A stretch of DNA of 64,000 nt from Candidatus Levyibacteriota bacterium (GCA_003152105.1 PLZJ01000002.1:685140-749139); one strand, 5' to 3'. Shown: positions 12,015 through 47,036, counted from the stretch's first letter. A program made the numbers and translations. The notes: generated from the letters alone by a model not told the origin.

Positions 12015-12020
12015 CAACGG

Positions 12021-19929: not shown

Positions 19930-21045
19930 ATGTCAAATAAGCTACGAATTGCCTTTTTCCATGAGCTTCCTGAAGGTGGTGCAAGGAGTGCCACAAATAG
20001 TTTTGCTAAAGAATTAAAAAAAAAGCATACTGTAGATTTGTTTTATATTGACGAAAAAAAAGACATTAGTGAACACAGAAACTATAGCAAGGCTTATTTC
20101 TATAAATTTATTCCCTTACAATGGAAAGGAAAAAATTGGAAAATCAGATTTTATAAAGATTCTATCGAATTATATAAAAATTGGAAACTTCATAAACAAA
20201 TAGCACAAACAATTAATAAACAAAAATATGATGTAATTTTTGTTAATGCCTCAAAGTTTATAGAATCACCTTTTTTGCTTAGATACTTAAAAACTAAATC
20301 AGTATTTTATTTGCATGATCCTTATTACCGAATAATTTATGATAAAGCATTAACATTTCCAAGTGACATTTCACAACTACGAAAACTTTACGAAACTGGT
20401 AATAGATTAATTAGAAAATTCATTGATAAAAAAAATATTTCAAAAGCGACATATGTTTTTTCTAATTCAAAATTTGCTAGTAGGCAGTTTTTAAATATTT
20501 ATCATAAAAATAGTGTAGTTAAATATATTGGTATTGATACTAGATTCTTTATTCCTAAAAATATGAAAAGAGATATCGACGTCTTATATATCGGGTCAAG
20601 AAGCAGTATTGATGGGTACGATTTATTAATTCAGATATTAAAATTGTTACCTAAAAATAGTAATGTAAGAATGGTTTTGCATGAAGATGGAATGAAGAGT
20701 CAATCAGAAATACGTACGCTTTATCAGCGATCTAAAATAGTAATTTGTTTAGCAAGAAAGGAACCATTTGGACTTATTCCCTTGGAAGCAATGTCTACTC
20801 AAACACCTGTCATTGCTTTAAAAGAAGGAGGTTATGTTGAAACAATTAAGGATAACGAAACAGGATACTTAGTATCTCCTAACGTCAAGCAAATTGCTAA
20901 TCGGATAACATATCTTTTATCACATAAGGCAAAAAGATTTGAAATGGGTGTTGCTGGTAGAAAATGGGTATTGCAAAATTGGAATAATATTATGCGTGGT
21001 AAGGAACTCGAAAAAGGATTAGTAACTATAGCATATGAAAAATAA
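19930..21045 (+). CDS. Glycosyltransferase family 4 (GT-B)
   Basis: C-terminal EX7E-type motif LARKEPFGLIPLEAMSTQTPVIALKEGGYVETIKDNETGYLV. Confidence 0.7.
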   Translation: MSNKLRIAFFHELPEGGARSATNSFAKELKKKHTVDLFYIDEKKDISEHRNYSKAYFYKFIPLQWKGKNWKIRFYKDSIELYKNWKLHKQIAQTINKQKYDVIFVNASKFIESPFLLRYLKTKSVFYLHDPYYRIIYDKALTFPSDISQLRKLYETGNRLIRKFIDKKNISKATYVFSNSKFASRQFLNIYHKNSVVKYIGIDTRFFIPKNMKRDIDVLYIGSRSSIDGYDLLIQILKLLPKNSNVRMVLHEDGMKSQSEIRTLYQRSKIVICLARKEPFGLIPLEAMSTQTPVIALKEGGYVETIKDNETGYLVSPNVKQIANRITYLLSHKAKRFEMGVAGRKWVLQNWNNIMRGKELEKGLVTIAYEK

Positions 21046-23281
21046 AGAAATTTCAATTATTTACATCTATTACAATACTCCTACTGAAATTAAAAATTCA
21101 CTTGCTTCAATTAAAAATGCAATTGGAAATATAACATATGAAATAATAATTATTGATAATCATTCAAGTGAATTTCTTAAAAATAACAACAAAAACATCC
21201 GTATTATTAGAAATAAATCAAATAAAGGATTTGGAAGAGCAATAAATCAGGCAGGAAAACTAGCTAAGGGCAACTTTTTATTATTAATTAATCCAGATAC
21301 GCTATTTCACAAAAATAGCATATTCTACTTATATCAAAAAATTAAAAACGACGAAAACATTGGAGCAATTGGCCCCATGCAAGTGTCTTTAGATAATAGC
21401 ATGTTACCAAGCATTAATGGATATCCAACTATACTAAAATCAATATTTTCATTTTCTATTCTTAACATACTTTTTAAAAACAATTCCTTTTCGAGAGCAT
21501 ATTGGTTACCAGGTGTACAAGGAACTAAACAACTTGTCGTACCTGTTATTGGTGGGGCATGCATGCTGATTCCCAAAAAGATTTTTAATCAAGTAAATGG
21601 CTTTGATGAAAAGTTTTTTATGTATTTTGAAGAATCAGATTTGTGTAAACGAATTAATCAGTTGGGCTATAAAATTATATATTATCCTAAAGCTAAAATT
21701 ACTCATCTTGTTGGAATGAGTAATAAAGATAAAACAAGTATTGAATCTATCTTTGAAAAAAGTAGGTATTATTACTTGAAAAAAAATTATGGAAATACAA
21801 AAGCTCTGCTAGCCGAAGGATTTATTAGATCTACGAAATCTAACAATATATTACTTGTTCTAATTTTACTTATTTCCTTATTTTTAAATTTATATAAAAT
21901 TTCAACTCAACTGATGTTTTTTGGGGATTTTGGCAGAGATTATTTAGTGGCTAGAGATATGGTTATTAACCATACTATACCATTAATTGGTATTGAATCA
22001 TCTGTTAAGTGGTTACATCAAGGTCCTCTTTCTATTTATTTTATTGCCTTATCTTTTCTGATCGGTAATTTTTCACCAATTGCTCCCGCGATTTTTTATG
22101 GAATAGTTGGCAGTTTGACAACTCTGTTGGTTTATATTCTAGGTAAAAATTTATGCAATAGTAAAGTTGGTTTACTGGCAAGCTTATTTTATGCAACTTC
22201 TCCTTTGATTACCGTAAGTATGAGAATGCCATATCATACTTCTTCAATACCATTTTTTGCATGCCTCTTCTTTATTTCCATGTTTAAAGTCATAAAAGGT
22301 AGCTATAAAGTATTACCAATTGCAAGTTTTTTACTTGGAATCTTATTCTTATTAGAATTATCTAATGGTGTACTTTTTTTACTATTTCTTATATATATTT
22401 ATTGGTATAAATTACGATTCCCTAAAAATATAATAAATAAATCTATTTTTACTTTTATACTTGGAATTTCTCCTTTTATCTTGTATGACCTTATGCATCA
22501 TTTTATTCAAATAGGCGGTTTTATATTATGGGTTATTAACAGAACGCGATTATTCTTCGGTTTAACTACAAACGGCAACGAAACAACATTACATGCAGGA
22601 AGCGCTATACTTACCATATGGCAAGAACTTAATAGGATATTCTTTCCTATAAATCATATCTTGGCAGATGTTTTACTTTTATCAATAATTTTTATTGTCT
22701 TTAAATTAAGGAAAGAGATTTTATTTAAAAAAGATACAATTATCATACCTATTATTTGGCTATTTGTTCCTCTAACTGCCTATGTTATTCATTCTGCTCC
22801 AGGAACCGCATATTTTCCTTTATTATTTCCTTCTATATCTTTACTACTTGGATATTCAATCTATTATTATTCCAAAATCAGTAAAATAGTGATACTATTT
22901 TTTATTACAATTTGTCTTATAAATGGAGTGTATACAATTTACAACCATTATTTTTTAGATTCTTCTTCATTTATTGGCTCTAATGCTCCTGGTTGGAATT
23001 ATGGTATGGGTATTTCAATTGATGAACAAGAAATAATTGCCAATAAAGTTGTAACGGATGCAGATCACAATGCCTTTCAATTCACTGGAGGCAAGGATGT
23101 GGCAACTTTTCCTTCAGACTTAGATAATTATAAATATTTAATAATATATCATCATGGTTTACTTAATAATAACGCAAAATTAACATATACTTTGTACAGA
23201 GCCTCTACAAAAATTAAAACCAATCAACATATAATATTTAAAACTAAATTTTACACCTTAACAAAATATGAAAGAACTTAA
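21035..23281 (+). CDS. Fusion protein: N-terminal GT2 (rhamnosyltransferase-like GT-A) + C-terminal ArnT/PMT_2-like GT-C membrane domain
   Basis: Residues 1-260: ISIIYIYYNTP...IIIIDNHS...GGACMLIPKK...FMYFEESDLCKR, GT2 with ED motif. Residues about 270-748: about 12 TM, FGDFGRDYLVARDM...WLHQGPLSIYF, equivalent to the ArnT DE..Y...KPPL.YW loop. Confidence 0.6.
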   Translation: MKNKEISIIYIYYNTPTEIKNSLASIKNAIGNITYEIIIIDNHSSEFLKNNNKNIRIIRNKSNKGFGRAINQAGKLAKGNFLLLINPDTLFHKNSIFYLYQKIKNDENIGAIGPMQVSLDNSMLPSINGYPTILKSIFSFSILNILFKNNSFSRAYWLPGVQGTKQLVVPVIGGACMLIPKKIFNQVNGFDEKFFMYFEESDLCKRINQLGYKIIYYPKAKITHLVGMSNKDKTSIESIFEKSRYYYLKKNYGNTKALLAEGFIRSTKSNNILLVLILLISLFLNLYKISTQLMFFGDFGRDYLVARDMVINHTIPLIGIESSVKWLHQGPLSIYFIALSFLIGNFSPIAPAIFYGIVGSLTTLLVYILGKNLCNSKVGLLASLFYATSPLITVSMRMPYHTSSIPFFACLFFISMFKVIKGSYKVLPIASFLLGILFLLELSNGVLFLLFLIYIYWYKLRFPKNIINKSIFTFILGISPFILYDLMHHFIQIGGFILWVINRTRLFFGLTTNGNETTLHAGSAILTIWQELNRIFFPINHILADVLLLSIIFIVFKLRKEILFKKDTIIIPIIWLFVPLTAYVIHSAPGTAYFPLLFPSISLLLGYSIYYYSKISKIVILFFITICLINGVYTIYNHYFLDSSSFIGSNAPGWNYGMGISIDEQEIIANKVVTDADHNAFQFTGGKDVATFPSDLDNYKYLIIYHHGLLNNNAKLTYTLYRASTKIKTNQHIIFKTKFYTLTKYERT

Positions 23282-25844
23282 AATTTTTATTGGCATTTTA
23301 TTACTTATAATTATTTTATCTTTTTCTTTGCCAGGTATTTTTCTACCCACAGATATATTAAATAATTATCCAAGTTTTAGCACAACAAAATGGGATAAGC
23401 CCCAAAATTCACTTCTTTCTGATGCAGTATTTCAGTTTGAACCATGGCGTGTATATACAAAATCGCAATTACAAAACGGCACATTTCCTTTATGGAACAA
23501 TTTAAACGGATCCGGTACACCGTTTTTCGCAAATATGATTTCAGCAATCTTATTTCCTTTAAATTTTATTTATTATATTTTGCCCACCGCGCCTTCGTTA
23601 TATTTAATCAGTTTTTTGAAGCTGTATTTTCTTGGACTTTTTAGTTATTTATATTTTAAAAAAGTGCTGAAGAAAGAAAAGTTTGCATTTATGGGAGCAG
23701 TTGCTGTGTCGTTCTCTGGATTTCCTATTCTTTGGTTATTATGGCCTCAAACTAATGTATACATGTTCTTCCCTTTGTTGCTATATATCACCGAAGAAAT
23801 AAGAGAACAACCGAAAAAATATTATAAATGGTATTTATTTCTATCAATAGTATATTTTTTAGCTGTACTTGGTGGACATCCAGAAACACTTTTTGATATT
23901 TTACTGCTACATGTGTCCTACTTACTTTTTAGGTTATGGAATCAAAAAAAACAATTATTTATTTCGATCGGTTTTGTATTTTTAGGAATTATTACTTCTG
24001 CTATTCAAATACTTCCATTTATTGAATATATTTTACATAGCGATATAGTGCAGCAACGAGGATTACAGACTTATACATATTATTTACCTTTAAAAAGCAT
24101 AATAATGCAAATTTTTCCATTTATACTTGGAGCTCCACAACTTAATTTTTATAAACCAATTGCTTCGTTTACTAATTTTCAAGAGGTAATGAGTGGCTAT
24201 GTTGGTGCAATAGTATTAATCTCTGCGATCTATGTTACACGTAAGTATTTTTCAGATAATTTAGTTAAATACTGGACTATTATGATAATACTAATATATG
24301 GAATTGCATATAATATTTATCCATTTAAAATGCTTTCTTATTTGCCTATATTACATAGTAATGCAAACCAACGATTAACAGGATTTGCATCAATTGGATT
24401 TATATTCTTAGCATGTTATGGATTTTCTAAAGTTGATAAAAACAAGATAAATATTCCATTTTCTTTCCAAAAATTATTTTACTTGATCTCAATAGTTGTT
24501 AGTTTACTATTGGTATTTTTACCGAAATATTTTCCAAAACATATAATAGGAAATAGTACCAATATTGCATTTGTATACTTTTTGCAAAATCATATTGCAT
24601 ATATTTTCTTAACAACATTTTTATTTTTACAATTAGTTCTATTTACTAGAAATAAATATATAGTTAAATACAAATTTGAATTAGTTATATTATTAATTTT
24701 ATCTCAGACTTTGTTTCTACTTTGGAATTATAATCCAATTACTGCTAAGAGTGTATATTATCCAAGAACGCCTTTAACTCAGGAGTTGCAACAAATACCA
24801 AGTGGTAAAGTTATTGAAATCGGAAATCCTTCCTTGGCTCCAGATAGCAATTTAGCATATGGAATATCAGGAGCAGAGAGCTATGATGCAATTGACGTTA
24901 AATCATATAAGACGACTTTAAATGCATATTTTCCAATTAGAAACATATGGGATAAAGTAGATGAAACAAATATAAATGCTTTCCAAAAGTTAGGTATTAA
25001 ATATATCTTGAGTGATTTTGATATAAATTTGAAAAGACAAATCTATCAAGGTAGAAGCGATACTATTTTACCTCCTCTTAGTCATTCTAGGCCAGCTTCG
25101 TATTCAGTTATAAATAGTATTCATACATTAAGCGGTATACGGGTGCTTTTTGCCACATTTAATAGATCGAATAATTGTATTGTTACTATTACATTTAAAG
25201 ATGATAAAACTTCACAAACACTACTTCAAAAAAATATTTATTGTTCAAATACTAGAAACTACATGTACTATTTTGTATCAACAAATAATATTACTTTAAA
25301 TCATGATAACTTGAGAATTGTTCTTCAATCTAATAGTGATAATACTCAAAATAATGTAGCGCTTGTTGGAGATAAAGGTGGTTACCCTTATATCGAGTTA
25401 TTTTCTCCTCCATCTAAGCAGGTGTACAAAAAGTTGTGGGAACTAAATGATGAATATATATGGTCAGTGCCAGATGCTAATTTTATAGTATTTGATGGAA
25501 AAAATATTTTGAAACGAGAAAGTTCTAATACCATTCAGATTGCAACTAACTATAACCATAATGCATCGATAACTGCAAAAGTAGTTAACTATCCAGGTTG
25601 GAAAGTTAGTATAGATGGAAAGACCGGTTTAGTAAATAAAAATGACTTATTTCTGTCTACAGAAGTTCCAAAAGGAAAACATGTAATACTATTTTATTAT
25701 GCTCCAATGTCATTCTACATTGGACTAATAGTTACAATAGTAATTTTGGTAAGTATTGGATTTTACATATTAGTTAGAGAAACTTACAGTATTAAAATCC
25801 TATGTTATAATCTCATAAGAACTTTCCAAAAAAAACGAAAATAA
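23268..25844 (+). CDS. YfhO-family polytopic membrane protein (putative GT-C glycosyltransferase)
   Basis: 858 aa. About 14 TM, then a roughly 300 aa extracytoplasmic domain and a final TM. FPLWNNLNGSGTPFFANMISAILFPLNFIYYIL matches the YfhO loop motif, and the architecture matches B. subtilis YfhO (about 860 aa). Confidence 0.5.
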   Translation: MKELKIFIGILLLIIILSFSLPGIFLPTDILNNYPSFSTTKWDKPQNSLLSDAVFQFEPWRVYTKSQLQNGTFPLWNNLNGSGTPFFANMISAILFPLNFIYYILPTAPSLYLISFLKLYFLGLFSYLYFKKVLKKEKFAFMGAVAVSFSGFPILWLLWPQTNVYMFFPLLLYITEEIREQPKKYYKWYLFLSIVYFLAVLGGHPETLFDILLLHVSYLLFRLWNQKKQLFISIGFVFLGIITSAIQILPFIEYILHSDIVQQRGLQTYTYYLPLKSIIMQIFPFILGAPQLNFYKPIASFTNFQEVMSGYVGAIVLISAIYVTRKYFSDNLVKYWTIMIILIYGIAYNIYPFKMLSYLPILHSNANQRLTGFASIGFIFLACYGFSKVDKNKINIPFSFQKLFYLISIVVSLLLVFLPKYFPKHIIGNSTNIAFVYFLQNHIAYIFLTTFLFLQLVLFTRNKYIVKYKFELVILLILSQTLFLLWNYNPITAKSVYYPRTPLTQELQQIPSGKVIEIGNPSLAPDSNLAYGISGAESYDAIDVKSYKTTLNAYFPIRNIWDKVDETNINAFQKLGIKYILSDFDINLKRQIYQGRSDTILPPLSHSRPASYSVINSIHTLSGIRVLFATFNRSNNCIVTITFKDDKTSQTLLQKNIYCSNTRNYMYYFVSTNNITLNHDNLRIVLQSNSDNTQNNVALVGDKGGYPYIELFSPPSKQVYKKLWELNDEYIWSVPDANFIVFDGKNILKRESSNTIQIATNYNHNASITAKVVNYPGWKVSIDGKTGLVNKNDLFLSTEVPKGKHVILFYYAPMSFYIGLIVTIVILVSIGFYILVRETYSIKILCYNLIRTFQKKRK

Positions 25845-25845
25845 A

Positions 25846-26562
25846 ATGAATAAAAATAAGTATGCAGGTACATTAACTTTAGAAGTTTTAGAATGGGCTC
25901 ATAAATACAACAAATGGATTGCCGATGAGATATCTCCACATGTTTCTTTCCCTCTATTAGAACTGGGTGCAGGTATTGGTAATATTTCATATCATTTCAC
26001 GAAGAATATTCCTAAAGGAAGTACTTTCTATATTTCAGAAATAGATACTCATCTCATTTCAATTTTGAGAAAAAAATATAACAAAAAAAATATTAAAGTG
26101 ATCAAATTAGATATTACTAAGGTAAGTAATAAATTATATTTAAATAAATTTAAGGCTGTTTTTGCAATAAATGTACTCGAGCATATTGAAAATGATTTAT
26201 CAGCTTTAAAAAATTCACATAAATTATTACAAAAAAATGGATTACTAATTTTATTAGTACCAGCAAAAATGTATGCATACTCAAACTTAGATAAAGAGTT
26301 AGGACATTACAGAAGGTATGAAAAAGATGAATTGATAAAAAAAATATCAGATGCTAAGTTCACAATCGAAAGTATAAAATATTTTAATATTGTAGGTTTA
26401 TTAAGTTGGATGGTAAGAAATAAGTTTGAACAAGAACATAGGATGCTTAGGCCATATCAAATATGGATTTTTGAGAAAATAGTACCATTCTTAAAAGCTT
26501 TGGAATCATTTATACCTATTCCTGTTGGAATATCATTAATTGTTGTTGCTCGTAAGAAATAA
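25846..26562 (+). CDS. Class I SAM-dependent methyltransferase
   Basis: SAM motif I LELGAGIGNISYHF; motif post I IKLDI; VLEHIEND. Confidence 0.7.
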   Translation: MNKNKYAGTLTLEVLEWAHKYNKWIADEISPHVSFPLLELGAGIGNISYHFTKNIPKGSTFYISEIDTHLISILRKKYNKKNIKVIKLDITKVSNKLYLNKFKAVFAINVLEHIENDLSALKNSHKLLQKNGLLILLVPAKMYAYSNLDKELGHYRRYEKDELIKKISDAKFTIESIKYFNIVGLLSWMVRNKFEQEHRMLRPYQIWIFEKIVPFLKALESFIPIPVGISLIVVARKK

Positions 26563-26568
26563 TAAAAA

Positions 26569-26895
26569 ATGAATACCACTCCTTATTACACAAAAATAAG
26601 ACGTTTGTTTGCAAGCTTTAAAAAAAACCTACGAATTAAAATAAATAAATATAACTGGGAATTTCATTTTTATGTTTTTGTTTTCTCTCTATGTTTCTCA
26701 GTTAGCGTTTTTATAATACTTATGATTAGTTTGCATTTATCTTTTAAGATGCCAAATACTACTGCGATAAATTGGTTTACCGTTCATAAGTATCCAAAAC
26801 AACAAGATATATTTTATTTTATATTCGGATTCCCTTTTATATTAGTACTGTCTATTATTATTTGGATGTTAACATTATGGGTAAAAAAGAGATAA
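26569..26895 (+). CDS. Small membrane protein, hypothetical
   Basis: 108 aa, 2-3 hydrophobic helices, embedded in the glycosylation operon. Confidence 0.35.
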   Translation: MNTTPYYTKIRRLFASFKKNLRIKINKYNWEFHFYVFVFSLCFSVSVFIILMISLHLSFKMPNTTAINWFTVHKYPKQQDIFYFIFGFPFILVLSIIIWMLTLWVKKR

Positions 26896-28430
26896 TACTA
26901 ATTATTGCTATCATCATATTTTCTGTTTTAATTGGTCAATCTACTTCAGGAAATATATTTTTTGGAGATTTAAATATGATAGATGAAGGCCAGTTTGCGG
27001 CTTGGGCTAATCATATGTTGCATGGGAAAATGATGTACAAAGATTTATATATAGTATATGGTCCTTTATACGTCTATCCTCTATATCTATTATTTAAAAT
27101 ATTATCACCTTCAGCTTTTCTGGTTAGATTATATCTTACATTAGGGGGAACTTTTGGAATCATTGCAATATATTTTGTAATGGTAGAACTAAAACTGAAT
27201 AGAATTGTAAAGTCATTATTGCTTATTTTGTTTTTATGTTTGCCAATGTTAAATTTAAGGGAAAGCATGGCCATATGGTGTTTATATTTTTTGTTAAAAA
27301 CAACAACAAAATCTTCGAAACACTCATTTTTAATTCTTGGAATTTTATCATCAATAACATTATTAGTTAGTCAAGATTTTGGTATCTTTATTCTTCTGGT
27401 AAGTGCTTTTCATCTATTTTACAGTAGGTTATTTGCTCACAATACGCTAAATAAACACGGCATCAGAGATTATATAGTAGGATATGTAACTATAATTATT
27501 TGTTTTACTGGCTGGGCTTTTAAAGAAGGGTGGTTACTTGATTATATAAGAGTGGCTACAGGTGTAAGCGTAGATCTATCGAGCATAAATGTTCCTAATG
27601 GGCAAAATTTTCCTAACCCGCTTTCTTATTTTGCTCTTCATACAGTCGGTATGAATGTAAAATATTTCTTCTCTAAAGATGTGCTTCTTTATGTAAGTAT
27701 ACTTGTTTACTTTGCCTCATTTTTCTACTTAACCGTAAATTATGTCAAAAGAAAATTAGTTAACACAAATTATAAGTTATTGTTAGTTACACTCTATGGA
27801 ATACTATTATATTGCATATTGCTAACTCGAAACGGCATCGGTCATTATTATTATACACTCCCTGCGGTTTTACTAATTTGCGGGTATTTTTTAAATCAAC
27901 TATTATTTATTAATAAAAAGATTACTCTTTTGTCTTCAGCATTAACTATAGTAATTTTGTCATTTTTTATACGATTACTTTATTTAAACAATCCAGAATT
28001 AAAACAGTCCTTGAATATCCATAATTATTTACCAATACATACAAATAATCCCTATAGAGTAGGAATTATAAATATTTCAAAATCTCAAGCAACAAAAATT
28101 TCATTATTGCAAACTTTTATTTTCAAAAATACTAAAAAAAGTGATTATGTATTCTTTTTTAATGATGAACCTATGATGTATATGTTAGTTGATAGAGTTA
28201 ATCCAACAGATTATGATTTGCCATTTGCAGGAAATACATTAGATAAAAGAATTAAAATGCTTAATCAAGTTGCTATGAAAAAACCAAAATATATTTTTAT
28301 AGATAATGATGTGTGGGCAGTAGATGGCATAAATAATAAAACACGTTTGCCAGAACTCACAAAATATTTATATTCTCATTATCATTTAATCAAAACTACT
28401 AATAATGTTCAGATATTTCAATTCATTTAA
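26862..28430 (+). CDS. Polytopic membrane protein, ArnT/PMT_2-like GT-C glycosyltransferase
   Basis: DEGQFAAWANHMLHGKMMYKDLYIVYGPLYVY matches the ArnT DEaRYA...KPPL.YW first-loop motif; about 11 TM. The real start is probably the ATG at 26877 (MGKKEIIL). Confidence 0.5.
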   Translation: MDVNIMGKKEIILIIAIIIFSVLIGQSTSGNIFFGDLNMIDEGQFAAWANHMLHGKMMYKDLYIVYGPLYVYPLYLLFKILSPSAFLVRLYLTLGGTFGIIAIYFVMVELKLNRIVKSLLLILFLCLPMLNLRESMAIWCLYFLLKTTTKSSKHSFLILGILSSITLLVSQDFGIFILLVSAFHLFYSRLFAHNTLNKHGIRDYIVGYVTIIICFTGWAFKEGWLLDYIRVATGVSVDLSSINVPNGQNFPNPLSYFALHTVGMNVKYFFSKDVLLYVSILVYFASFFYLTVNYVKRKLVNTNYKLLLVTLYGILLYCILLTRNGIGHYYYTLPAVLLICGYFLNQLLFINKKITLLSSALTIVILSFFIRLLYLNNPELKQSLNIHNYLPIHTNNPYRVGIINISKSQATKISLLQTFIFKNTKKSDYVFFFNDEPMMYMLVDRVNPTDYDLPFAGNTLDKRIKMLNQVAMKKPKYIFIDNDVWAVDGINNKTRLPELTKYLYSHYHLIKTTNNVQIFQFI

Positions 28431-28470: not shown

Positions 28471-29364
28471 TTGATTTTTATGAAATGTTTGATATGTAAT
28501 GCTACTTCTTTTCACAATATTGTAAACTCAAAAGACCTCAAAATTTTTTCATGCAACGTTTGTGGATTATACATAGTGCCACAATCAAAATCTAAAATAA
28601 AAAATGTTTCAAAATATTTTAAAAATTATGATCTTGATAAATACATTAATTATTATGAAAAATTTAGAAAAGATATCTATAAAAATAACTGGAAACAAAT
28701 AACCAGGTGGAAGAAAGGTGGCAAATCCTTAGACTTTGGCGCTTCTTTTGGATGGTTTCTAGAATTGGCACCTAAAAAATGGACTTCCTTTGGGGTAGAG
28801 CCATCGCCAGTTGCAGTTGAACGATGCAAATCGAAACATTTAAAGGTTAAATTAGGAACTGAAAATAAAGTGAGCGATTTTCATACAAAATTTGATGTAA
28901 TTACCATGTGGAATGTGATTGAGCATCTCTCTAATCCGGTTAAGACATTAATTAAGTTAAAAAGTAATTTAAATAAGGACGGTATTATTGCCATTGCATT
29001 TCCTAATAGGTATGGTTTTTATAATCAAACAGCATATTTTTTAAATCGAATTTCCTTTGGCTTAATTACTAAGCCACTTTACATTTTATTTCAAGCAGAT
29101 AATCCAGTTCCTCATTTGTACCATTTTAGAATTAGTGATATTGAAAAAATTCTAAATTCTTTAGGATTTAAAATATTACAAATCGATTCTCAAAAAATTG
29201 TGGATACCAACGGATTGTGGCATAGAGAGGAACTTGATAAAGATAGAATGTTAAAATTATTAGCATTTATCGGAATTCCTACTTTAAAGGTGCTTGATGT
29301 CTTATTAGATTTATTACGAATCAATAACGATGAAATTGTTATTTATGCTAAGAAAATTGAATAA
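28471..29364 (+). CDS. Zn-ribbon + class I SAM methyltransferase (Methyltransf_13/23-like)
   Basis: CLICN...CNVCG Cys4 ribbon at the N-terminus; LDFGASFGWFLE (SAM motif I); MWNVIEHL. Confidence 0.65.
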   Translation: MIFMKCLICNATSFHNIVNSKDLKIFSCNVCGLYIVPQSKSKIKNVSKYFKNYDLDKYINYYEKFRKDIYKNNWKQITRWKKGGKSLDFGASFGWFLELAPKKWTSFGVEPSPVAVERCKSKHLKVKLGTENKVSDFHTKFDVITMWNVIEHLSNPVKTLIKLKSNLNKDGIIAIAFPNRYGFYNQTAYFLNRISFGLITKPLYILFQADNPVPHLYHFRISDIEKILNSLGFKILQIDSQKIVDTNGLWHREELDKDRMLKLLAFIGIPTLKVLDVLLDLLRINNDEIVIYAKKIE

Positions 29365-29384
29365 TAATCTACTTCCATTTTCTT

Positions 29385-30158
29385 CTAACGTATAAGTAAT
29401 AATAGCCACGATTTGGGAGTATGGAATAGTCTGTTGTTAAGCAATGCTAGACAAAACCAGGGAGTATAAGAAAAGATTGATTGAAACAACTTAAAATTAG
29501 TTTTACCGTGCTGTCTATCTTTCCAAATTGTTGGGATTTCATATATTTTATATTCTAAGCAGTGGGCTTTAGCAACAATTTCTAACGTAACGCTAAAGCT
29601 AGACACGCTTTTTAATGAAATATTATGTATTAATTCTGAAGAATACATCTTATAGCTATTTGTCGGATCACTAGTATTAATTCCAGTAAATAATTGTAAT
29701 AATCTTCCTGCAAGTTTTGGGAATCCAACTTTTAAAGGTGCATTCAATTCTTGTTTTCCTCCTTTTGAATATCTTGAAGGACAGACTACGTCTGCTGTTT
29801 TAGGAATTAAATTAAGCATTTCTTTAATTTGCGTCAAATCATCACATAGATCAGCCATTGTCACAAGTATTTTAGAGCCTGAGGAGTATTTAAAACCTGT
29901 CCGTATTGCTCCAGATGGGCCTCTATGAATCGAGTTTTTTAAAATTACCAGTTGTGGATATATGCGTTTTAGATTTTTTAATACAGGTAATGTTGTATCG
30001 TTATCCAAATCATAAATAACAAGAATTTGATTTTTAACAGTAATATTTTTATCTAATAACCTAAGGGTTTCTTCTATATTTGCAGCTTCATTATATACGG
30101 GTATAATAACTGATAAGTCATATTTTGAATTTTTAGTAGTTTTCTGTATTTTCTTCAT
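29385..30158 (-). CDS. GT2 glycosyltransferase (Dpm1/polyprenyl-phosphate sugar synthase-like)
   Basis: DLSVIIPVYNEAANIEETLRLL, DLDNDTT and a hydrophobic C-terminal tail. Confidence 0.65.
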   Translation of the reverse strand: MKKIQKTTKNSKYDLSVIIPVYNEAANIEETLRLLDKNITVKNQILVIYDLDNDTTLPVLKNLKRIYPQLVILKNSIHRGPSGAIRTGFKYSSGSKILVTMADLCDDLTQIKEMLNLIPKTADVVCPSRYSKGGKQELNAPLKVGFPKLAGRLLQLFTGINTSDPTNSYKMYSSELIHNISLKSVSSFSVTLEIVAKAHCLEYKIYEIPTIWKDRQHGKTNFKLFQSIFSYTPWFCLALLNNRLFHTPKSWLLLLIR

Positions 30159-31408
30159 GGCAAAATGCGAGGCTTAGGAATAGGGACTAAAAATTTGCCC
30201 TTATTTTTAATATATAAACTTTTAGACAAAAAATAATTTAAATAATTCCAACTTAACAGTAAAGCAAATTTAGGCATAATGGATAGAAATTCTTCTTCGC
30301 TAACAATCGGAATATGCGTACCTGGTGTAACCAATCCTTGCTTTAGCTCGTTTGTCTCTGCAATACATGATATTTCATTACTACTTAGTTCAAAAAAGTT
30401 TAATAATGTATTACCCTTTGCTGGAGCACCATAGCCTCCAAGATTTTCCTTTGATAGTTTATATTTATGAATTAAACTCCAAATAGCTGATTTTGTTTTT
30501 AATACATTATTGGTAAAAGCTAAATAATTTGAAATTTTAGAAATTCCCCATATTTTTTCTTGATTTATTATTTCTTGGACAGATTTACTTATTGTATGCA
30601 TATGCATAAACCCAACAAATACTCTAATAGCAGGTCCGGATGCTCCAAATGGTACTCGATCAACTCTATATATCTCTAAGCCGTATTTATTAAATAACCC
30701 TTCTAAAGGGGTAATGCTTAAGTAGCTTAGGTGTTCATGATAAATTGTATCAAAAAGCGTTTGTTCCATTAAATCAATCAAATATGGTGCTTCGATAATA
30801 AACGTTCCATTTTTTTCTAATATTGTGATTAGGTTGGTTAAAAAGTCTTCAATATCGTCAATATGTGCAAAAACGTTTGTCGCAGTGATTATTTTTGCCT
30901 TTCCGTGAGTTTTCTCAATTTCTTTAGAAACCTGCTTATTGAAGAAATCATTGTATACAATTAAGCCTGATGCAAGTGCAAACTTGGCTACTTTGGAAGG
31001 CTCGATTCCTATTCTTATCATCTTATTCTTTTCAAATTCATTCAATAGAATTCCATCATTGCATCCTATGTCGATAATAATGTCGTCTTTTTTTAAAGAA
31101 TATTTCGTTGTTATATATTTGGCTAATTTTGCATAATGTGCTTTCAGTGCTTTAGAAGTTGATGATAAATATAGGTAATCATCAAAAGTAATTTTTGGAG
31201 ATACAACAGTATCAAGTTGAACAAGAAAGCAGTTTTGACATATACATAGATTTAAAGGATAAAATATTTCATTTTTTATGTCTTTTGCTGAGATAAAACT
31301 ATTTGAAGGGGGTTGGTTACCTAGTTTAAGAAAAGTATATAAATCAGACGATTGACAGTAACGACAATTAACTACGTTTCTAGCATAATCGAATGATTGA
31401 CGTTTCAT
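30155..31408 (-). CDS. NDP-hexose C-methyltransferase-like enzyme (TylCIII family architecture: Zn-binding domain + SAM MTase + C-terminal C-methyltransferase domain)
   Basis: N-terminal CRYCQS...LCICQNC zinc ribbon; DIGCNDGILL SAM motif. 417 aa with about 150 aa after the MTase core, the size and order of sugar 3-C-methyltransferases. Confidence 0.5.
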   Translation of the reverse strand: MKRQSFDYARNVVNCRYCQSSDLYTFLKLGNQPPSNSFISAKDIKNEIFYPLNLCICQNCFLVQLDTVVSPKITFDDYLYLSSTSKALKAHYAKLAKYITTKYSLKKDDIIIDIGCNDGILLNEFEKNKMIRIGIEPSKVAKFALASGLIVYNDFFNKQVSKEIEKTHGKAKIITATNVFAHIDDIEDFLTNLITILEKNGTFIIEAPYLIDLMEQTLFDTIYHEHLSYLSITPLEGLFNKYGLEIYRVDRVPFGASGPAIRVFVGFMHMHTISKSVQEIINQEKIWGISKISNYLAFTNNVLKTKSAIWSLIHKYKLSKENLGGYGAPAKGNTLLNFFELSSNEISCIAETNELKQGLVTPGTHIPIVSEEEFLSIMPKFALLLSWNYLNYFLSKSLYIKNKGKFLVPIPKPRILP

Positions 31409-31432: not shown

Positions 31433-32395
31433 TTAGGCGGTAATTTGATTGTCATTATACCACAGAAAAGTCTTTATGAGCCCTTCTTTTAAAGAAATTT
31501 TTGGAGTAAATCCTAAGCTTTTAATTTTATGTACATCAGGTAATCTTCTTGTTACCGATCCATCTGGCGATTTGGTAGATTTAATTGATATAGATGTTTT
31601 TGTAATTTGAGATAATATGGCAATAATTTCCTGAATTGTAACTTCTTTAGAAGTACCAATATTATATATTCCGCGATTTTTAGATTTGCTTAGTAATAAG
31701 TATAAGCAGTCTGTAAAATCATCAATATATATAAAAGATCTCTTACTTAGGCCATCTCCTTGAATGGGCAAGGAAATGGACTTGTTATTTTTAGTTGTTA
31801 ATTTTAGTATTTTAGATATAAGTTCAGGAATAACATGTTCGTACCCCATTTGTGGACCGTATACATTATGGGGTCTAAAAATTACTATTTTTTCAAATAT
31901 TTTAGAGCCGTTATAAAGCGTTAAAAGTTCACTTATAATTTTACCACCTGCATAAGAGTAGCGAGGATTATATAAGTCCGGAATAGATAAAGGCACATTT
32001 TCAGGTGTAGGAAAAACAGGTGGAGTTTGGTACACTTCTGAGCTTGATGCTAGAAATAATTCTTTCACGTGATTCTTTTTACCGGCGTCTAAAACATTAA
32101 TCATTCCTTTAACTCCCACTTCTAATACTAATTCAGGTTTTTCATAAAAATATTTTGTTCCATTAACAAAAGCAAGATGTACAACAGAATCAATATTTTG
32201 ACAAGCTTGATTTACTGTATTTATATTTCTTACATCACCTGCAATAAATTCAAAATGATTGTTATTGGATATTTGTAATCTATTTCCACGAGATTGATCA
32301 TCTAAAACCCTCACAAAATGATTATTTGATAAAAGCTTATTAACTAATGAAGATCCAATAAAACCCGAACCACCAGTAATCAAATATTTTTTCAT
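31433..32395 (-). CDS. NAD-dependent sugar epimerase/dehydratase (extended SDR)
   Basis: ITGGSGFIGSSLVNKL Rossmann motif; YAGGK (YxxxK). Confidence 0.7.
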   Translation of the reverse strand: MKKYLITGGSGFIGSSLVNKLLSNNHFVRVLDDQSRGNRLQISNNNHFEFIAGDVRNINTVNQACQNIDSVVHLAFVNGTKYFYEKPELVLEVGVKGMINVLDAGKKNHVKELFLASSSEVYQTPPVFPTPENVPLSIPDLYNPRYSYAGGKIISELLTLYNGSKIFEKIVIFRPHNVYGPQMGYEHVIPELISKILKLTTKNNKSISLPIQGDGLSKRSFIYIDDFTDCLYLLLSKSKNRGIYNIGTSKEVTIQEIIAILSQITKTSISIKSTKSPDGSVTRRLPDVHKIKSLGFTPKISLKEGLIKTFLWYNDNQITA

Positions 32396-32534: not shown

Positions 32535-33800
32535 ATGGTGAAAAATAAACAACTTAAAAAAATTGCAGTTATAGGAATTGGTAGAGTTGGACTTCCTTTA
32601 GCTCTTGTTCTTGCAGACCAAAATTATTTTGTATATGGAATTGGAAGAACTAAAGAAAAAATAAATGATATTAATAAAGGGAAAATGCCTTTTCTTGAGA
32701 AAGGTGCTTTAAACCTACTCAAAAAAACTTTACATAAAACATTTATTTGTACAACAGATTATTCGGAAATTAAAAACTGTGATTATATAATCATGACACT
32801 TGGAACTCCAGTTGATGAAAATATGAATCCCTTACTGAATCAAATTAACGAATCATTGGAAAGTGCTATGCCATATTTTAAAACTGGCCAAACTTTAATT
32901 CTAAGAAGTACAGTCTCGCCAAAAACTACATTATATGTAGCTTCTTTATTAGAAGATTCCGGAAAATTAAAAATTGGTAAAAATTTCTTTCTTGCTTTTT
33001 GCCCTGAAAGGATATCAGAGGGTAAGTCAATTGAAGAAATAACAACAATTCCTCAAATAATTGGAGGAGTAGACCCTAAAAGCGCATTAAAAGCAAAAGA
33101 ATTATTTACATCAATTAAAGTAGAAACACTAATAACTGACTCAACAAGTGCTGAGCTCGCGAAATTATTTACTAACATGTATCGATATATTAATTTTGCA
33201 ATTTCAAATGAATTCATGGTTCTGGCAAATAATTATGGTAAGAATATCCATGAAATAGTTAACTTAGTTAACTATAAATATAAAAGAGGTGGATTGTCAT
33301 TACCTGGACTAACTGGAGGACCTTGTTTATTTAAAGATGGTTTCTTTCTAATTGCAGATATACCATATGCTGAACTTATTTCCACAAGTTGGAAGATAAA
33401 TGAATCTATCCCTTTATTTTTAATAAAACTTATTAAAGAAAAAATAGAGCTTAAACATAAAAGGGTGGCTTTACTTGGTATGTCATTTAAATCTGAAATT
33501 GACGATATCCGAGAATCTTTAAGTTTTAAAATTCGCAATTCACTTTTAAGAGAAAGAGCAATTATTAAGATGCATGACCCATATGTCAAAAGCTATAAAA
33601 ACCAGATTATTGAAAATAATGTGTACGAAAGTTTTAAAATGGCAGATTTAATTATCGTTGCAACTAATCATGCCATGTATAGAAAACTAGATATAGCAAA
33701 AATTAAGTTTCTTGCTAAAAAAAATTGTTATGTTTGTGACGTATGGAACAATTTTAATACCAATAAAGTAATATTTAAATTAAAAGATTTATCTTCTTAA
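32535..33800 (+). CDS. Nucleotide-sugar 6-dehydrogenase (UDP-glucose/GDP-mannose dehydrogenase family)
   Basis: IAVIGIGRVGLPLALVLA NAD-binding N-terminus; catalytic Cys context GGPCLFKDG; 421 aa. Confidence 0.75.
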   Translation: MVKNKQLKKIAVIGIGRVGLPLALVLADQNYFVYGIGRTKEKINDINKGKMPFLEKGALNLLKKTLHKTFICTTDYSEIKNCDYIIMTLGTPVDENMNPLLNQINESLESAMPYFKTGQTLILRSTVSPKTTLYVASLLEDSGKLKIGKNFFLAFCPERISEGKSIEEITTIPQIIGGVDPKSALKAKELFTSIKVETLITDSTSAELAKLFTNMYRYINFAISNEFMVLANNYGKNIHEIVNLVNYKYKRGGLSLPGLTGGPCLFKDGFFLIADIPYAELISTSWKINESIPLFLIKLIKEKIELKHKRVALLGMSFKSEIDDIRESLSFKIRNSLLRERAIIKMHDPYVKSYKNQIIENNVYESFKMADLIIVATNHAMYRKLDIAKIKFLAKKNCYVCDVWNNFNTNKVIFKLKDLSS

Positions 33801-33884: not shown

Positions 33885-34937
33885 ATGATAAAAAATAAAA
33901 AAACTGCGATTAATAAATTTTGGCATGACAAGAGAATTTTAATAACTGGTGGTGCTTCATTTATCGGATCTAACCTAGTCGATACATTACTCGAAGAACA
34001 TAATCCAAAGTCAATTAGAGTCGTAGATAATTTAAGTAGTGGATTACTTAAGAATATTAATAGTCATATAAAAAATAAAAATATTGAATTTGTAAAAGGA
34101 GATTTACGAGATAGTACGGTTGCAAAATCCGCCACAAAAAAAATTGATGTAATTTTTCATCTAGCTGCTGATCATGGAGGTAGGGGATATGTTGATTTAC
34201 ATCAAGCGGGTCCAGCATCTAACTTTATGTTGGATGGTATGATATTTCGAGAAGCACTTAAACAAAATGTTAAGAAAATTGTATTTGCTTCTTCAGGATG
34301 TGTATATCCAAATTACATACAAACTAATATAAAAAAGAAATTATATTTAACCGAAGAACTAGTAGTCCCTCCATATGATGCAGATAACTTGTATGGTTGG
34401 GCCAAATTAATGGCTGAGTTGACACTAAAGGCATATCATCAAGAATACGGGATGCAAACAGCATCTTGTAGATATTTTACTGTCTACGGTCCAAGAGGAG
34501 TTGAGAATCATGCAGTTATTGCTATGATTGCTCGATCTTTTATAAAACAAAATCCATATCAAATCTGGGGTGATGGACAGCAAATACGAAATTGGACATA
34601 TATTAATGATATTGTATCGGGAACAATTAAAACTGCAGAGAAAATAAATAATGGAACAGCACTGAATTTAGGTACTATGGAAAGAATAAAAGTAATAGAT
34701 GCAGTAAATCAAATTCTCAATTATACAAATTTTCATCCAAAACTAAAATTTCTACCTACTATGCCAACTGGACCAGTTAATCGAGTTGCTGATAATAAAC
34801 TTGCAAAGAGATTACTCAATTGGGAACCAAAAACACTTTTCTCAGAAGGTGTCAAAAAAACAATTGATTGGTATTATTCAAATAAAAAAAGAGATGAAAT
34901 TGAACATAATTTTTCAAAACTAATAATAGAAAGATAA
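33885..34937 (+). CDS. NAD-dependent nucleotide-sugar dehydratase/decarboxylase/epimerase (extended SDR; UXS/ArnA-C-terminal-like)
   Basis: ILITGGASFIGSNLVDTL, VDNLSSG, YGWAK (YxxxK). Confidence 0.65.
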   Translation: MIKNKKTAINKFWHDKRILITGGASFIGSNLVDTLLEEHNPKSIRVVDNLSSGLLKNINSHIKNKNIEFVKGDLRDSTVAKSATKKIDVIFHLAADHGGRGYVDLHQAGPASNFMLDGMIFREALKQNVKKIVFASSGCVYPNYIQTNIKKKLYLTEELVVPPYDADNLYGWAKLMAELTLKAYHQEYGMQTASCRYFTVYGPRGVENHAVIAMIARSFIKQNPYQIWGDGQQIRNWTYINDIVSGTIKTAEKINNGTALNLGTMERIKVIDAVNQILNYTNFHPKLKFLPTMPTGPVNRVADNKLAKRLLNWEPKTLFSEGVKKTIDWYYSNKKRDEIEHNFSKLIIER

Positions 34938-36701: not shown

Positions 36702-38225
36702 ATGAAAAAAATATTCACTAATACTTATACAATTTCCATTTTGCTATTTGTAATAGGTATTTGTACAAGGATACCATTTCTTGAACATTTTCAATCTCAT
36801 TGGGATGGAGCAGAATATAGTATGGCTATATTACATTATTCATTAGTTCAAGATACTCCATCGCCGCCTGGATATCCATTATACATTTTTTTAGGAAAAA
36901 TAATATATCAATTTGTACATAATCCACATACCGCTTTGCTTATCGTGAGTGTGTTGTTTAGTGGATTAACCGCTTATTTATTTTTTATACTGGGAAGTAT
37001 ATTTTTAAATAAAGAAATAGGCATAATTGCATCCCTAATTTATTTATCTTCTCCTGTATTTTATTTTTTAGGAATTACCGCACACGGCTATGGAATTACA
37101 GTCGCACCGTTATTATTACTTATCATTTTAATAGTTAGAGTTATTAAGTATAAAAAGTCGCATCCTATACTACTTGGCATATTATTTTCAATTACAATTG
37201 GAATTAGACCTCAAGATAGTATTTTTACAACTGGCTTATTTTTATATAGTTTATTTATCATAAATAAGCCAGACAAGATTAAAGCTATTATTTCATTTTT
37301 ATTATTTACCACATTATGGTTTATTCCAATATTGTCTTTAGTTGGGGGATTAATCCCATACTTACAAAGTCTTAAGAATGCAACTACTACAAATGCAATT
37401 CCACTACCAACTTTTACAATCATTGAAGGAAATATTTTTCAGGTTATAAGAGGTATATTTCTGACGTTTGGAATAGGTATAATTATTTTTATTTCAACTA
37501 TCAAATTTATACATAAAAAGAATTTTATTAAAGTTAAAAAAAATAAATATTATATTTTATTTTTGGTTTGGATATTACCTGCTTTTCTATTTAATATAAT
37601 AATCAGAAGTGATCAACCTGGTCATCAAGTATCTTATTTAGCTGGGTTAATTGTGGTATTTTCTGTACTTATTTTTGAAAGTTTTAAAGGGTATACAAAG
37701 GTAATGTATGTCATTGTTATGATAATTTGTATATTCAATATTTATAATTTCTTTAGAGATCGTGACCCTGATTACAAACTTGTTTATACTCCTACATCAT
37801 TTCATTATAGCGAAATACAAAAAAATGATATACAGCTTGGGTCAATTATTCCGTATATTGTTAAACATTTTAATCCAAATAAAACAATAATTATTACTAG
37901 TGCGCAGCCTTGGAGACCTTTAACATATCATTTAAATAAATTTGAAGTTATCGATCTAGAAGGTTTATATACAAATGATTCACATTATACTTCGGTTGAG
38001 CAAATTGGAAACTATTTAACTATGCAAGTACAATCAAATAAAAAAATGGAGTTTCAAATACCAAAAAAAGTTTACTCTTTAGTATTTACGGTTGCAAGTA
38101 CCTGCTCATATATTCACCAAGCACATATTAAACTACCTGGGAATACTTGTTTAACTGTTTTAAAAGTAAAACCAAATCAAGTATTTTCTTATAAAATTAA
38201 TAGATTTGCTAATATTTCAAAATGA
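36702..38225 (+). CDS. ArnT/PMT_2-like GT-C glycosyltransferase (polytopic membrane)
   Basis: HWDGAEYSMAILHYSLVQDTPSPPGYPLYIFLGKI matches DEaRY...KPPL.YW of ArnT / GT39 / GT83; about 11 TM. Confidence 0.55.
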   Translation: MKKIFTNTYTISILLFVIGICTRIPFLEHFQSHWDGAEYSMAILHYSLVQDTPSPPGYPLYIFLGKIIYQFVHNPHTALLIVSVLFSGLTAYLFFILGSIFLNKEIGIIASLIYLSSPVFYFLGITAHGYGITVAPLLLLIILIVRVIKYKKSHPILLGILFSITIGIRPQDSIFTTGLFLYSLFIINKPDKIKAIISFLLFTTLWFIPILSLVGGLIPYLQSLKNATTTNAIPLPTFTIIEGNIFQVIRGIFLTFGIGIIIFISTIKFIHKKNFIKVKKNKYYILFLVWILPAFLFNIIIRSDQPGHQVSYLAGLIVVFSVLIFESFKGYTKVMYVIVMIICIFNIYNFFRDRDPDYKLVYTPTSFHYSEIQKNDIQLGSIIPYIVKHFNPNKTIIITSAQPWRPLTYHLNKFEVIDLEGLYTNDSHYTSVEQIGNYLTMQVQSNKKMEFQIPKKVYSLVFTVASTCSYIHQAHIKLPGNTCLTVLKVKPNQVFSYKINRFANISK

Positions 38226-38689
38226 ATCTAAAAAAATATATATATTTATGTTTCTTTGCCTGTATTGGATTATGGTTTCTGCTATCAATCGCAAGAACTG
38301 CATTTGATTTTGTGAGAATTATTCCAGAAGAAAAAGAGTGGCATGGACTGAGTTATGATCAAGAAAGATTTAAGCTGTTTGGAAATGATTATGCACTCAT
38401 TAAATTAATGAAAAAATATATAGCAAATAAATCTTATATTATCTTTATTTCAAAAGATGGGGAAGCATTTTATTTGTCAAGATATTACTTATACCCGTCC
38501 AATATGCTATTTGTCCAGTCACCCATAGATTTAAGAAACATAAATACAAAAAAATATTCAACTATAGTTGAATATCCAAATATAGTTAGTCTAAAGCCAT
38601 ATCTTGGTGCATTAGTGAATAATTATTCAATTGCATATCGTTTACAAGCAAAAGGTAATAGTAAAGAGATATTGAGGTTAAAAAAATGA
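38222..38689 (+). CDS. Small N-terminally anchored extracytoplasmic protein, hypothetical
   Basis: One N-terminal TM plus about 120 aa soluble. Start overlaps the upstream stop (ATGA) and its stop overlaps the next start. Confidence 0.4.
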   Translation: MNLKKYIYLCFFACIGLWFLLSIARTAFDFVRIIPEEKEWHGLSYDQERFKLFGNDYALIKLMKKYIANKSYIIFISKDGEAFYLSRYYLYPSNMLFVQSPIDLRNINTKKYSTIVEYPNIVSLKPYLGALVNNYSIAYRLQAKGNSKEILRLKK

Positions 38690-47035: not shown

Positions 47036-47036
47036 G

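Follow-up and report, generated by a model that had tools for sequence, protein, structure and literature searches.

A TylC3/TcaB9-type sugar C-methyltransferase and its conserved gene cassette in a glycan locus of a Candidatus Levyibacteriota bacterium: a possible route to a C-methyl-branched envelope sugar

Introduction

In a stretch of 64,000 nucleotides of DNA from Candidatus Levyibacteriota bacterium (GCA_003152105.1, PLZJ01000002.1:685140-749139), called here the window and numbered over its whole length, we studied the gene of a 417-residue protein (30155..31408, minus strand) which Pfam, its matches in the PDB and a structural model assign to the sugar C-methyltransferases, and which we abbreviate as C-MT. 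Two further genes lie on the same strand, namely an extended short-chain dehydrogenase/reductase of 320 residues (SDR; 31433..32395), which is the first gene of the operon and is separated from C-MT by 24 bp, and a family 2 glycosyltransferase of 257 residues (GT2; 29385..30158), whose ATG overlaps the C-MT stop codon by 4 bp (ccATGA). Divergent from the SDR operon, across a 139-bp spacer, the plus strand encodes a nucleoside diphosphate (NDP)-sugar 6-dehydrogenase of 421 residues (32535..33800). A preliminary description of this DNA had named three methyltransferase reading frames, C-MT and two others that we call MT2 and MT3, and all three are present at the positions reported for them, as are the C-MT motifs CRYC...CQNC and DIGCNDG. 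It had also considered the 4-keto-sugar partner of C-MT to be missing, which does not stand, given the extended SDR immediately upstream in the same operon and the dehydrogenase divergent from it.

Results

The C-Methyltransferase

The three-domain Pfam match of C-MT is far above chance, and each of the three domains clears its curated cutoff by a wide margin. With hmmscan, PF08421 was found at residues 15-75 (E = 1.9e-20, 73 bits against a cutoff of 31), the class I S-adenosylmethionine (SAM) fold PF13489 at residues 101-247 (E = 5e-19, 69 bits), and PF08484 at residues 259-411 (E = 4e-38, 131 bits against a cutoff of 23.5), the latter covering positions 5-160 of the 160 in the profile. In the PDB, phmmer aligned the protein from end to end with MtmC (4rv9, 7e-79), TcaB9 (3ndi, 2e-65) and KijD1 (5t64, 9e-62), with an identity of 35% to MtmC and 32% to TcaB9. 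The AlphaFold (AF2) model, made from an alignment of 24 clade members (pLDDT 89, pTM 0.89), gave Foldseek TM-scores of 0.93 with MtmC (4rv9), 0.92 with KijD1 and 0.91 with TcaB9, while the further PDB matches were generic methyltransferase cores with TM-scores of 0.35 or less. MtmC, KijD1 and TcaB9 are the only three solved proteins having the full-length C-MT fold, and all of them are C-3 methyltransferases, with MtmC being a bifunctional 4-ketoreductase/3-C-methyltransferase (PMC10269268).

The active site of C-MT is intact. Its zinc ligands C15, C18, C57 and C60 are invariant in the 24-sequence clade alignment, and its SAM motif, D113-I-G-C-N-D-G119, aligns with the EIGCNDG of TcaB9. The catalytic residues of TcaB9 were taken from the mutants named in PDB titles (Y76F, H181N, Y222F, E224Q and H225N, entries 4e31, 4e2w, 4e2x, 4e2y and 4e2z), the chain numbering being the paper numbering plus 2, as judged from the Y76F entry 4e31. 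All five of these residues are kept, with Y78, H182, Y223, E225 and H226 of C-MT corresponding to Y76, H181, Y222, E224 and H225 of TcaB9, and all five are invariant in the 24 clade members. These residues, together with the PF08484 match of the C-terminal domain, uphold the TylCIII/TcaB9-type assignment that had been proposed earlier for this protein. NCBIfam gave no assignment above its cutoffs. With C-MT, the known family of TylC3, TcaB9, KijD1 and MtmC gains a new member, whose predicted activity is that of a SAM-dependent NDP-4-keto-sugar C-methyltransferase.

The family is widely distributed. Of 8,000 candidates scored, 7,989 matched at E <= 1e-10, and both GTDB, with at least 597 species, and metagenomes, with at least 587 contigs, contain relatives. 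Carriers from the Candidate Phyla Radiation (CPR) and DPANN, at 35-43% identity among the matches listed, include Gottesman-, Harrison-, Davies-, Levyi-, Magasanik-, Uhr- and Doudnabacteria, Saccharibacteria, and Woese-, Nano- and Aenigmarchaeota. The idea that such an inventory is unexpected in a minimal genome is not supported, in view of these many lineages. A recent acquisition of C-MT from actinomycetes was considered and rejected, since its closest homologues among the matches listed (55-60% identity) come from related genomes with a low content of guanine plus cytosine (GC), where their loci are syntenic with the window.

Conservation of the Cassette and Exchange of C-MT Subtypes

The dehydrogenase, SDR, C-MT and GT2 genes form one conserved cassette. 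We compared 163 loci fetched with the C-MT profile, with denominators that vary because each test needs enough flanking sequence. A GT2 at least 40% identical to that of the window lies immediately downstream in 8 of 14 loci whose C-MT is at least 45% identical (n = 15) and in none of the 126 below 45%; the remaining loci of the former group carry weaker or displaced GT2 homologues in all cases but one. The dehydrogenase is found within 5 kb in 9/11 loci of the group with at least 45% C-MT identity vs. 1/75 below it, and an SDR orthologue (at least 45% identical) within the same distance in 8/11 vs. 0/75. Direct extraction gave 13 orthologues of the SDR, 13 of the dehydrogenase and 18 of the GT2, from loci with a GC content of 24-68%. 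Dehydrogenase orthologues (33-67% identity) accompany the cassette in 15 loci, that is, these 13 plus the comparison loci L166 and L167, and the labels of the cassette loci include Chlamydiales, Planctomycetales, Acidimicrobiia and Magnetospirillum moscoviense BB-1. The framing in terms of antibiotic deoxysugars or specialised O-antigens in the preliminary description is not borne out by this neighbourhood, given that what recurs beside C-MT is a dehydrogenase, an SDR resembling decarboxylases and a GT2 of the polyprenyl-phosphate type, and not an RmlA/RmlB-type set.

Three loci found by means of MT2 (L165, L166 and L167) keep the gene order of the window, namely a family 4 glycosyltransferase (GT4), a GT2-PMT_2 fusion, a YfhO-like protein, a membrane protein of 516-526 residues and MT2, followed by the convergent GT2, C-MT and SDR and then the divergent dehydrogenase. 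The flanks of L165 and L167 consist of genes that share 55-65% identity with their counterparts in the window, and the C-MT slot is occupied by a paralogous subtype with 36-38% identity (8660-9928 in L165 and 2831-4093 in L167) which keeps the full catalytic set. Given that the flanks are kept while the C-MT slot varies, the cassette is conserved and its C-MT subtype can be exchanged, with regio- or stereochemistry as a possible difference between the subtypes. Paralogous copies were also located in L002 (4138-5406), L082 (2681-3946) and L083 (12884-14098), where more than one C-MT paralogue is present in a single locus. The second copies of L002 and L082 are of the subtype that keeps the catalytic set, and the second C-MT of L083, which is more divergent (32% identical), is without the equivalents of His182 and Tyr223. 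RmlD-like reductase genes accompany the cassette in L002, L003, L005, L082, L083 and L167.

Upstream of the cassette in L002 and L082-L084, there is a membrane protein of about 600-700 residues (e.g., 4124-6019 in L083) without a Pfam match and with 46-70% mutual identity. Neither blastp nor HMM (hidden Markov model) searches found a homologue of it in the window, and therefore it is not a universal cassette member. L002 (CAZILC010000004.1), one of the loci that hold the closest homologues of C-MT, is labelled "uncultured Gammaproteobacteria", has 32% GC and shares a wide synteny with the window, including homologues of GT2b, PMT_2, the genes w38222 and w38686, Wzx and GT4; its taxonomic label is probably wrong.

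The SDR and the Dehydrogenase

The SDR carries the nucleotide-binding motif GGSGFIG at residue 8 (GxxGxxG), S117-S118-S119-E120, Y148xxxK152, N177 and R284, of which S118, S119, E120, Y148, K152, N177 and R284 align with T118, S119, E120, Y147, K151, N176 and R277 of hUXS1. The segment ASSSEVY is invariant in 14/14 cassette orthologues, and the YxxxK, Asn and Arg are likewise invariant. Glucuronate decarboxylases share the TSE triad, the Asn and the Arg, and several enzymes of this kind, ArnA, CalS9, AtmS9, RsU4kpxs and EvdS6, release a 4-keto-pentose for downstream enzymes (PMC10338323). As for 4,6-dehydratases, those of dTDP-, UDP- and CDP-sugars have [ST]DE or [ST]DK, with [ST]SE present only in GDP-mannose 4,6-dehydratase, GMD (PMC8987622), so this triad is not exclusive to decarboxylases. 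The Asp-Glu or Asp-Lys acid/base pair of these dTDP-, UDP- and CDP-sugar dehydratases is absent in all 14 SDR orthologues, which have S-S-E instead, and the similarity to GMD is weak, with 32 bits in NCBIfam and no GMD among the PDB matches down to 1e-25. We consider the SDR a candidate NDP-hexuronate 4-oxidase/decarboxylase which would supply the 4-keto sugar to C-MT.

The dehydrogenase is matched by TIGR03026 with 327 bits against a cutoff of 190, and its PDB matches (Cap5O, 5e-55; CalS8, 7e-40) place it in the Cap5O/WecC/CalS8 branch. Downstream of it lies a second extended SDR of 350 residues (SDR2; 33885..34937, plus strand), which is epimerase-like and has GDP-mannose 3,5-epimerase among its PDB matches. 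Its motif "ASSGCVYP" resembles the catalytic-Cys motif of that enzyme. The uronic acid may thus be epimerised by SDR2 at C-5 or at C-3 and C-5; SDR2 may also be a 4-ketoreductase or an epimerase of the pathway, or be unrelated to it.

The Cassette Glycosyltransferase

The GT2 matches PF00535 with 75 bits. All five of its PDB matches with E < 1e-5 are polyprenyl-phosphate glycosyltransferases, namely PfDPMS (3e-18), GtrB in three sequence variants (5e-10) and ArnC (7e-6), and its NCBIfam neighbours, all below cutoff, are mostly of the same type (PgfS, DPM-type, ArnC, AglJ and PpgS). The length of the family ranges from 235 to 298 residues. These relationships make the GT2 a candidate DPMS/GtrB/ArnC-like polyprenyl-phosphate glycosyltransferase.

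The Second and Third Methyltransferases

MT2 (28471..29364, plus strand) is a zinc-ribbon class I methyltransferase convergent with GT2, having a Methyltransf_23 core (9e-18); its probable start is the ATG at 28480, as in the public gene call (294 residues), and not the TTG at 28471. Its N-terminus has the pattern CxxC-18-CxxC, whose four Cys are kept without exception by 16 homologues, the most distant of them 23% identical. With hmmscan, MT2 has no PF08421 match at E <= 0.01, and NCBIfam gives no assignment above cutoff. A profile-profile comparison with the C-MT family (hhalign) nevertheless aligned the Cys pairs; with 99.1% probability and E = 1.3e-18, the match takes in the ribbon, the SAM core and a conserved His that lines up with the catalytic H226. 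The earlier statement that MT2 has the same kind of zinc ribbon as C-MT is thus justified by the invariant Cys4 and the hhalign result, despite the unmatched PF08421 model. Since it lacks the NDP-sugar-binding C-terminal domain PF08484, MT2 is, judged by these alignments, a truncated relative of the C-MT family, and it holds the same position in the syntenic loci L165, L166 and L167. MT3 (25846..26562, plus strand, 238 residues), also announced earlier, does exist and is by Pfam a class I SAM methyltransferase of the plain type; the syntenic loci L165 and L166 have no counterpart of it, and it does not belong to the conserved block.

Host and Layout of the Glycan Locus

The window comes from a metagenomic scaffold of 1.14-1.15 Mb with about 28-34% GC. 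The host does have a small genome, as first suggested, and is a Levybacteria-like CPR bacterium, judged from this 1.15-Mb contig and from its isoleucyl-tRNA synthetase (IleRS): the nearest relatives of the IleRS in the database share 66-72% identity with it, and those that carry a name are for the most part Candidatus Levybacteria/Levyibacteriota and Patescibacteria. The glycan locus, of about 35 kb (12021-47035), lies exactly between tRNA-Val (11941-12015) and tRNA-Thr (47036-47107), with a GC fraction of 0.26-0.30 vs. 0.30-0.36 in the housekeeping flanks, and looks like a variable island.

Large polytopic membrane proteins are unusually dense between 12021 and 46326, many of them without a Pfam match (12021-13811, 14934-16691, 21035-23281, 23268-25844, 26862-28430, 36702-38225, 38686-40005, 40000-41328, 42046-43497, 43589-45142 and 45133-46326), and those with a family match belong to PMT_2, PTPS_related, YfhO or Wzy_C. 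The YfhO-like, PMT_2 and PTPS_related proteins of the block are candidate GT-C enzymes. Among them, the YfhO-like protein of 858 residues (23268..25844, plus strand; PF09586, 33 bits against a cutoff of 28.5) may draw on the polyprenyl-phosphate sugar and is kept in L165 and L166, as is the GT2 plus PMT_2 (GT-A/GT-C) fusion of 748 residues recognised by Pfam (21035..23281, plus strand); GT2-PMT_2 fusions of an analogous type adjoin the dehydrogenase in L082-L084. Directly upstream of MT2, a polytopic protein of 522 residues without a Pfam match (26862..28430, plus strand) is kept together with MT2 in the relatives, with 40-52% identity. The locus also encodes a Wzx-like flippase (18649-19887), a Wzy_C/O-antigen-ligase-like protein (45133-46326) and GT4 enzymes.

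The window encodes MurT/GatD-type peptidoglycan genes and no nucleotidyltransferase; a flippase of the GtrA family was not recognised. A conceivable glycosylation acceptor is the small protein at the locus edge (46310-47035), which is anchored in the membrane and combines a linker rich in Ser, Thr and Asn with Ig-like/Glucodextran_B domains. A GGDEF-domain protein of 259 residues (56530-57309) lies between DnaE and GatB in this reduced genome. A scan for promoters and terminators was uninformative in such AT-rich DNA, with 32 promoter-like sites vs. 28±6 expected.

Discussion

Proposed Pathway

The reading that we prefer, and to which we give about an even chance, is an Arn-like series of reactions leading from an NDP-hexuronate to a 4-keto-pentose, its C-methylation, a polyprenyl-phosphate sugar and a final GT-C transfer. 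The divergent dehydrogenase would start by oxidising an NDP-hexose to the NDP-hexuronate, with UDP-N-acetylglucosamine (UDP-GlcNAc) or UDP-glucose (UDP-Glc) as the economical candidates in a minimal genome that makes peptidoglycan; starting from such a housekeeping UDP-sugar, no dedicated activating enzyme would be needed, in keeping with the MurT/GatD-type genes and the lack of a nucleotidyltransferase in the window. The SDR would then oxidise C-4 and decarboxylate the sugar, releasing the NDP-4-keto-pentose as UXS, ArnA, CalS9 and EvdS6 do. C-MT would take the proton alpha to the ketone and methylate the enolate carbon from SAM, most likely at C-3 by analogy, with C-5 being possible as well. 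The ketone might be reduced thereafter by the NADH-charged SDR, by an MtmC-like NADPH activity of C-MT, or by an accessory reductase, which would be RmlD-like in some relatives and SDR2 here. The translationally coupled GT2 would load the sugar onto polyprenyl phosphate, and after flipping, a polymer or protein of the surface would receive it from a YfhO-like or PMT_2-type GT-C enzyme. One more methyl group might come from MT2. What the sequence analysis establishes is the family of C-MT, its complete active site, the operon and the conserved cassette; the substrate, the methylated position, the reduction, the lipid carrier and the acceptor are deduced from these.

In more general terms, it is possible, with a probability that we place somewhat under one half, that the cassette is an undescribed and widely transferred route by which a pentose with a C-methyl branch, or else a related sugar formed by decarboxylation, is built on polyprenyl phosphate to decorate the surface outside the cytoplasm, and in which the exchangeable C-MT subtypes may set the regio- or stereochemistry. 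With the same reserve, the carriers of that route would be CPR bacteria, Chlamydiales, Planctomycetes, metagenome-assembled genomes of Actinobacteria, and Magnetospirillum. No description of a dehydrogenase/SDR/C-MT/GT2 cassette was found in a limited literature search, which is weak negative evidence.

Weighing of the Alternatives

Several of our observations speak against the proposed pathway. The characterised relatives of C-MT, namely MtmC, TcaB9 and KijD1, all methylate dTDP-4-keto-6-deoxyhexoses, not pentoses, and no C-methyl pentose of a bacterial envelope glycan was found in our limited literature search. The SDR falls below every curated NCBIfam cutoff, and its top scores are those of dTDP-glucose 4,6-dehydratase (TIGR01181, 1.6e-39, 136 bits against a cutoff of 365) and LegB 4,6-dehydratase (4.5e-39, about 135 bits), ahead of the UDP-4-keto-pentose synthase PRK11908 (76 bits, cutoff 294), with only 52 bits for ArnA (cutoff 777); it also has a Ser at a position which is usually Thr in decarboxylases. 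In L002 and L082, the SDR orthologue adjoins a paralogous C-MT and an RmlD-like reductase and not the window-type C-MT, and the dehydrogenase of the window is transcribed together with SDR2 and not with the cassette SDR. Part of this evidence would suit a classical deoxysugar route, which we judge unlikely, and in which the SDR would be an NDP-hexose 4,6-dehydratase and C-MT would methylate a 4-keto-6-deoxyhexose at C-3, giving an evalose-, virenose- or mycarose-type sugar, with the dehydrogenase supplying a separate uronic acid of the same glycan. The substrates of MtmC, TcaB9 and KijD1, the two top dehydratase scores, the occurrence of [ST]SE as the GMD motif, and the RmlD-like reductases found with the cassette all favour it. 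Nevertheless, the Asp-Glu/Asp-Lys pair is absent in the 14 SDR orthologues, the GMD similarity is poor, the NCBIfam scores of the SDR are all far under their cutoffs, and the association with the dehydrogenase is specific to the cassette, at 9/11 vs. 1/75. Less likely still is that the SDR acts after methylation as a 4-epimerase or 4-ketoreductase, with the keto-sugar enzyme encoded elsewhere in the genome. Both alone (129 bits) and with a profile (176 bits), the best PDB match of the SDR is the promiscuous GDP-sugar 4-epimerase PhGal4E_1 (8rdg), with UXS1 (102 bits alone and 154 with a profile) third among distinct PDB proteins and 8vr2, which also has T-S-E, as the second-best match; the profile search did not decisively separate the epimerase, decarboxylase and dehydratase classes. 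Moreover, C-MT pathways normally need a dedicated 4-ketoreductase, and no other obvious one is present in the window cassette. However, PhGal4E_1 has S-S-S-T where the SDR carries its invariant Glu, the cassette has no second enzyme, conserved across phyla, that would form a 4-keto sugar, and several relatives carry separate RmlD-like reductases besides the SDR.

The lipid-carrier step has its own difficulties. The GT2 of the window and all 18 of its orthologues strictly keep Met-Ala-Asp where DPMS, GtrB and ArnC have Asp-Ala-Asp, so that the first Asp of the DXD motif is missing, and a single conserved C-terminal hydrophobic helix is found vs. two to four transmembrane helices in GtrB and PfDPMS. 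These two features, together with the Wzx-like flippase, the Wzy_C/O-antigen-ligase-like protein and the GT4 enzymes of the locus, would agree with an ordinary cytoplasmic glycosyltransferase which passes the sugar directly from the NDP donor to a lipid-linked oligosaccharide in a Wzx/Wzy pathway, without any polyprenyl-phosphate monosaccharide. We find this explanation improbable, and slightly more so than an epimerase or ketoreductase role of the SDR, given that all PDB relatives and most NCBIfam neighbours of the GT2 are polyprenyl-phosphate glycosyltransferases and that many GT-C proteins, which depend on donors of this kind, are found in the conserved block. As for the single helix, DPM1-type enzymes with one or no membrane helix exist.

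Significance

CPR bacteria live as episymbionts, and very little is known about the chemistry of their surface; here about 35 kb of a 1.15-Mb genome is devoted to glycan assembly. If the pathway through a uronate-derived 4-keto-pentose is true, envelope sugars would gain a new class, branched by a C-methyl group and brought in on a lipid carrier; the TylC3/TcaB9 family would act not only on the 6-deoxyhexoses of antibiotics but also on 4-keto-pentoses derived from uronates; and the pathway would provide a function for thousands of metagenome proteins which are unnamed or labelled only "class I SAM-dependent methyltransferase". The presence of the cassette in the cultured Magnetospirillum moscoviense BB-1 makes this prediction directly testable. 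If the classical deoxysugar route holds instead, C-MT would be an ordinary new member of a known family.

Comparison with Known Systems

The system as we infer it from sequence would join three known kinds, namely a TylC3-type C-methyltransferase, the supply of a 4-keto-pentose by a uronate decarboxylase, and three-component glycosylation by means of a lipid carrier, in an arrangement that our limited literature search did not find described. With TylC3, TcaB9, KijD1 and MtmC, the C-MT of the window shares the three-domain architecture, the Cys4 zinc site, the SAM fold and the catalytic Tyr/His/Tyr-x-Glu-His, with 32-35% identity over the full length and TM-scores of 0.91-0.93. Those enzymes, however, belong to actinomycete antibiotic pathways having RmlA/RmlB, 2,3-dehydratases and natural-product glycosyltransferases, and they act on a dTDP-4-keto-2,6-dideoxyhexose, whereas here the host is a CPR bacterium, the genes lie in an envelope glycan locus, and the substrate is probably a 4-keto-pentose. 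The virenose of Coxiella burnetii lipopolysaccharide, for which a TylCIII-like C-methyltransferase has been proposed (PMC3539893), is closer in its destination, given that it is also a C-methyl-branched sugar of an envelope glycan and not of an antibiotic; in contrast, virenose is a 6-deoxyhexose proposed to derive from a nucleotide-activated 4-keto-6-deoxyhexose, and no coupling to a dehydrogenase/decarboxylase or to a lipid-carrier GT2 has been described for it.

The Arn pathway, which makes the 4-amino-4-deoxy-L-arabinose (L-Ara4N) of lipid A by means of Ugd, ArnA, ArnB, ArnC and ArnT, has the same protein classes and the same inferred logic, from the dehydrogenase through a GT2 that loads undecaprenyl phosphate to GT-C transfer outside the membrane. 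There, the intermediate steps are those of an aminotransferase and a formyltransferase, whereas here a C-methyltransferase takes their place, and the cassette SDR is a stand-alone protein of 320 residues only distantly related to ArnA. In the CalS8/CalS9, AtmS9 and EvdS6 systems, which pair an NDP-glucose dehydrogenase with a decarboxylase, a 4-keto-pentose is likewise released to a tailoring enzyme, and the cassette dehydrogenase belongs to the CalS8 branch; the tailoring of such 4-keto-pentoses includes one branched-chain product, eurekanate (PMC10338323). The downstream enzymes in those systems, however, are aminotransferases or a proposed thiamine diphosphate (ThDP)-dependent acyl-transfer enzyme and not SAM-dependent C-methyltransferases, and their products are antibiotics. 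Finally, the three-component glycosylation systems (GtrA/GtrB/GtrX, CsbB/GtcA/YfhO and PgfS) resemble the window in having a small GtrB/DPMS-type GT2 beside a YfhO- or PMT_2-type GT-C enzyme, with the difference that they transfer common sugars, glucose or N-acetylglucosamine, from UDP donors, while in the cassette a whole sugar-remodelling operon is joined to the GT2.

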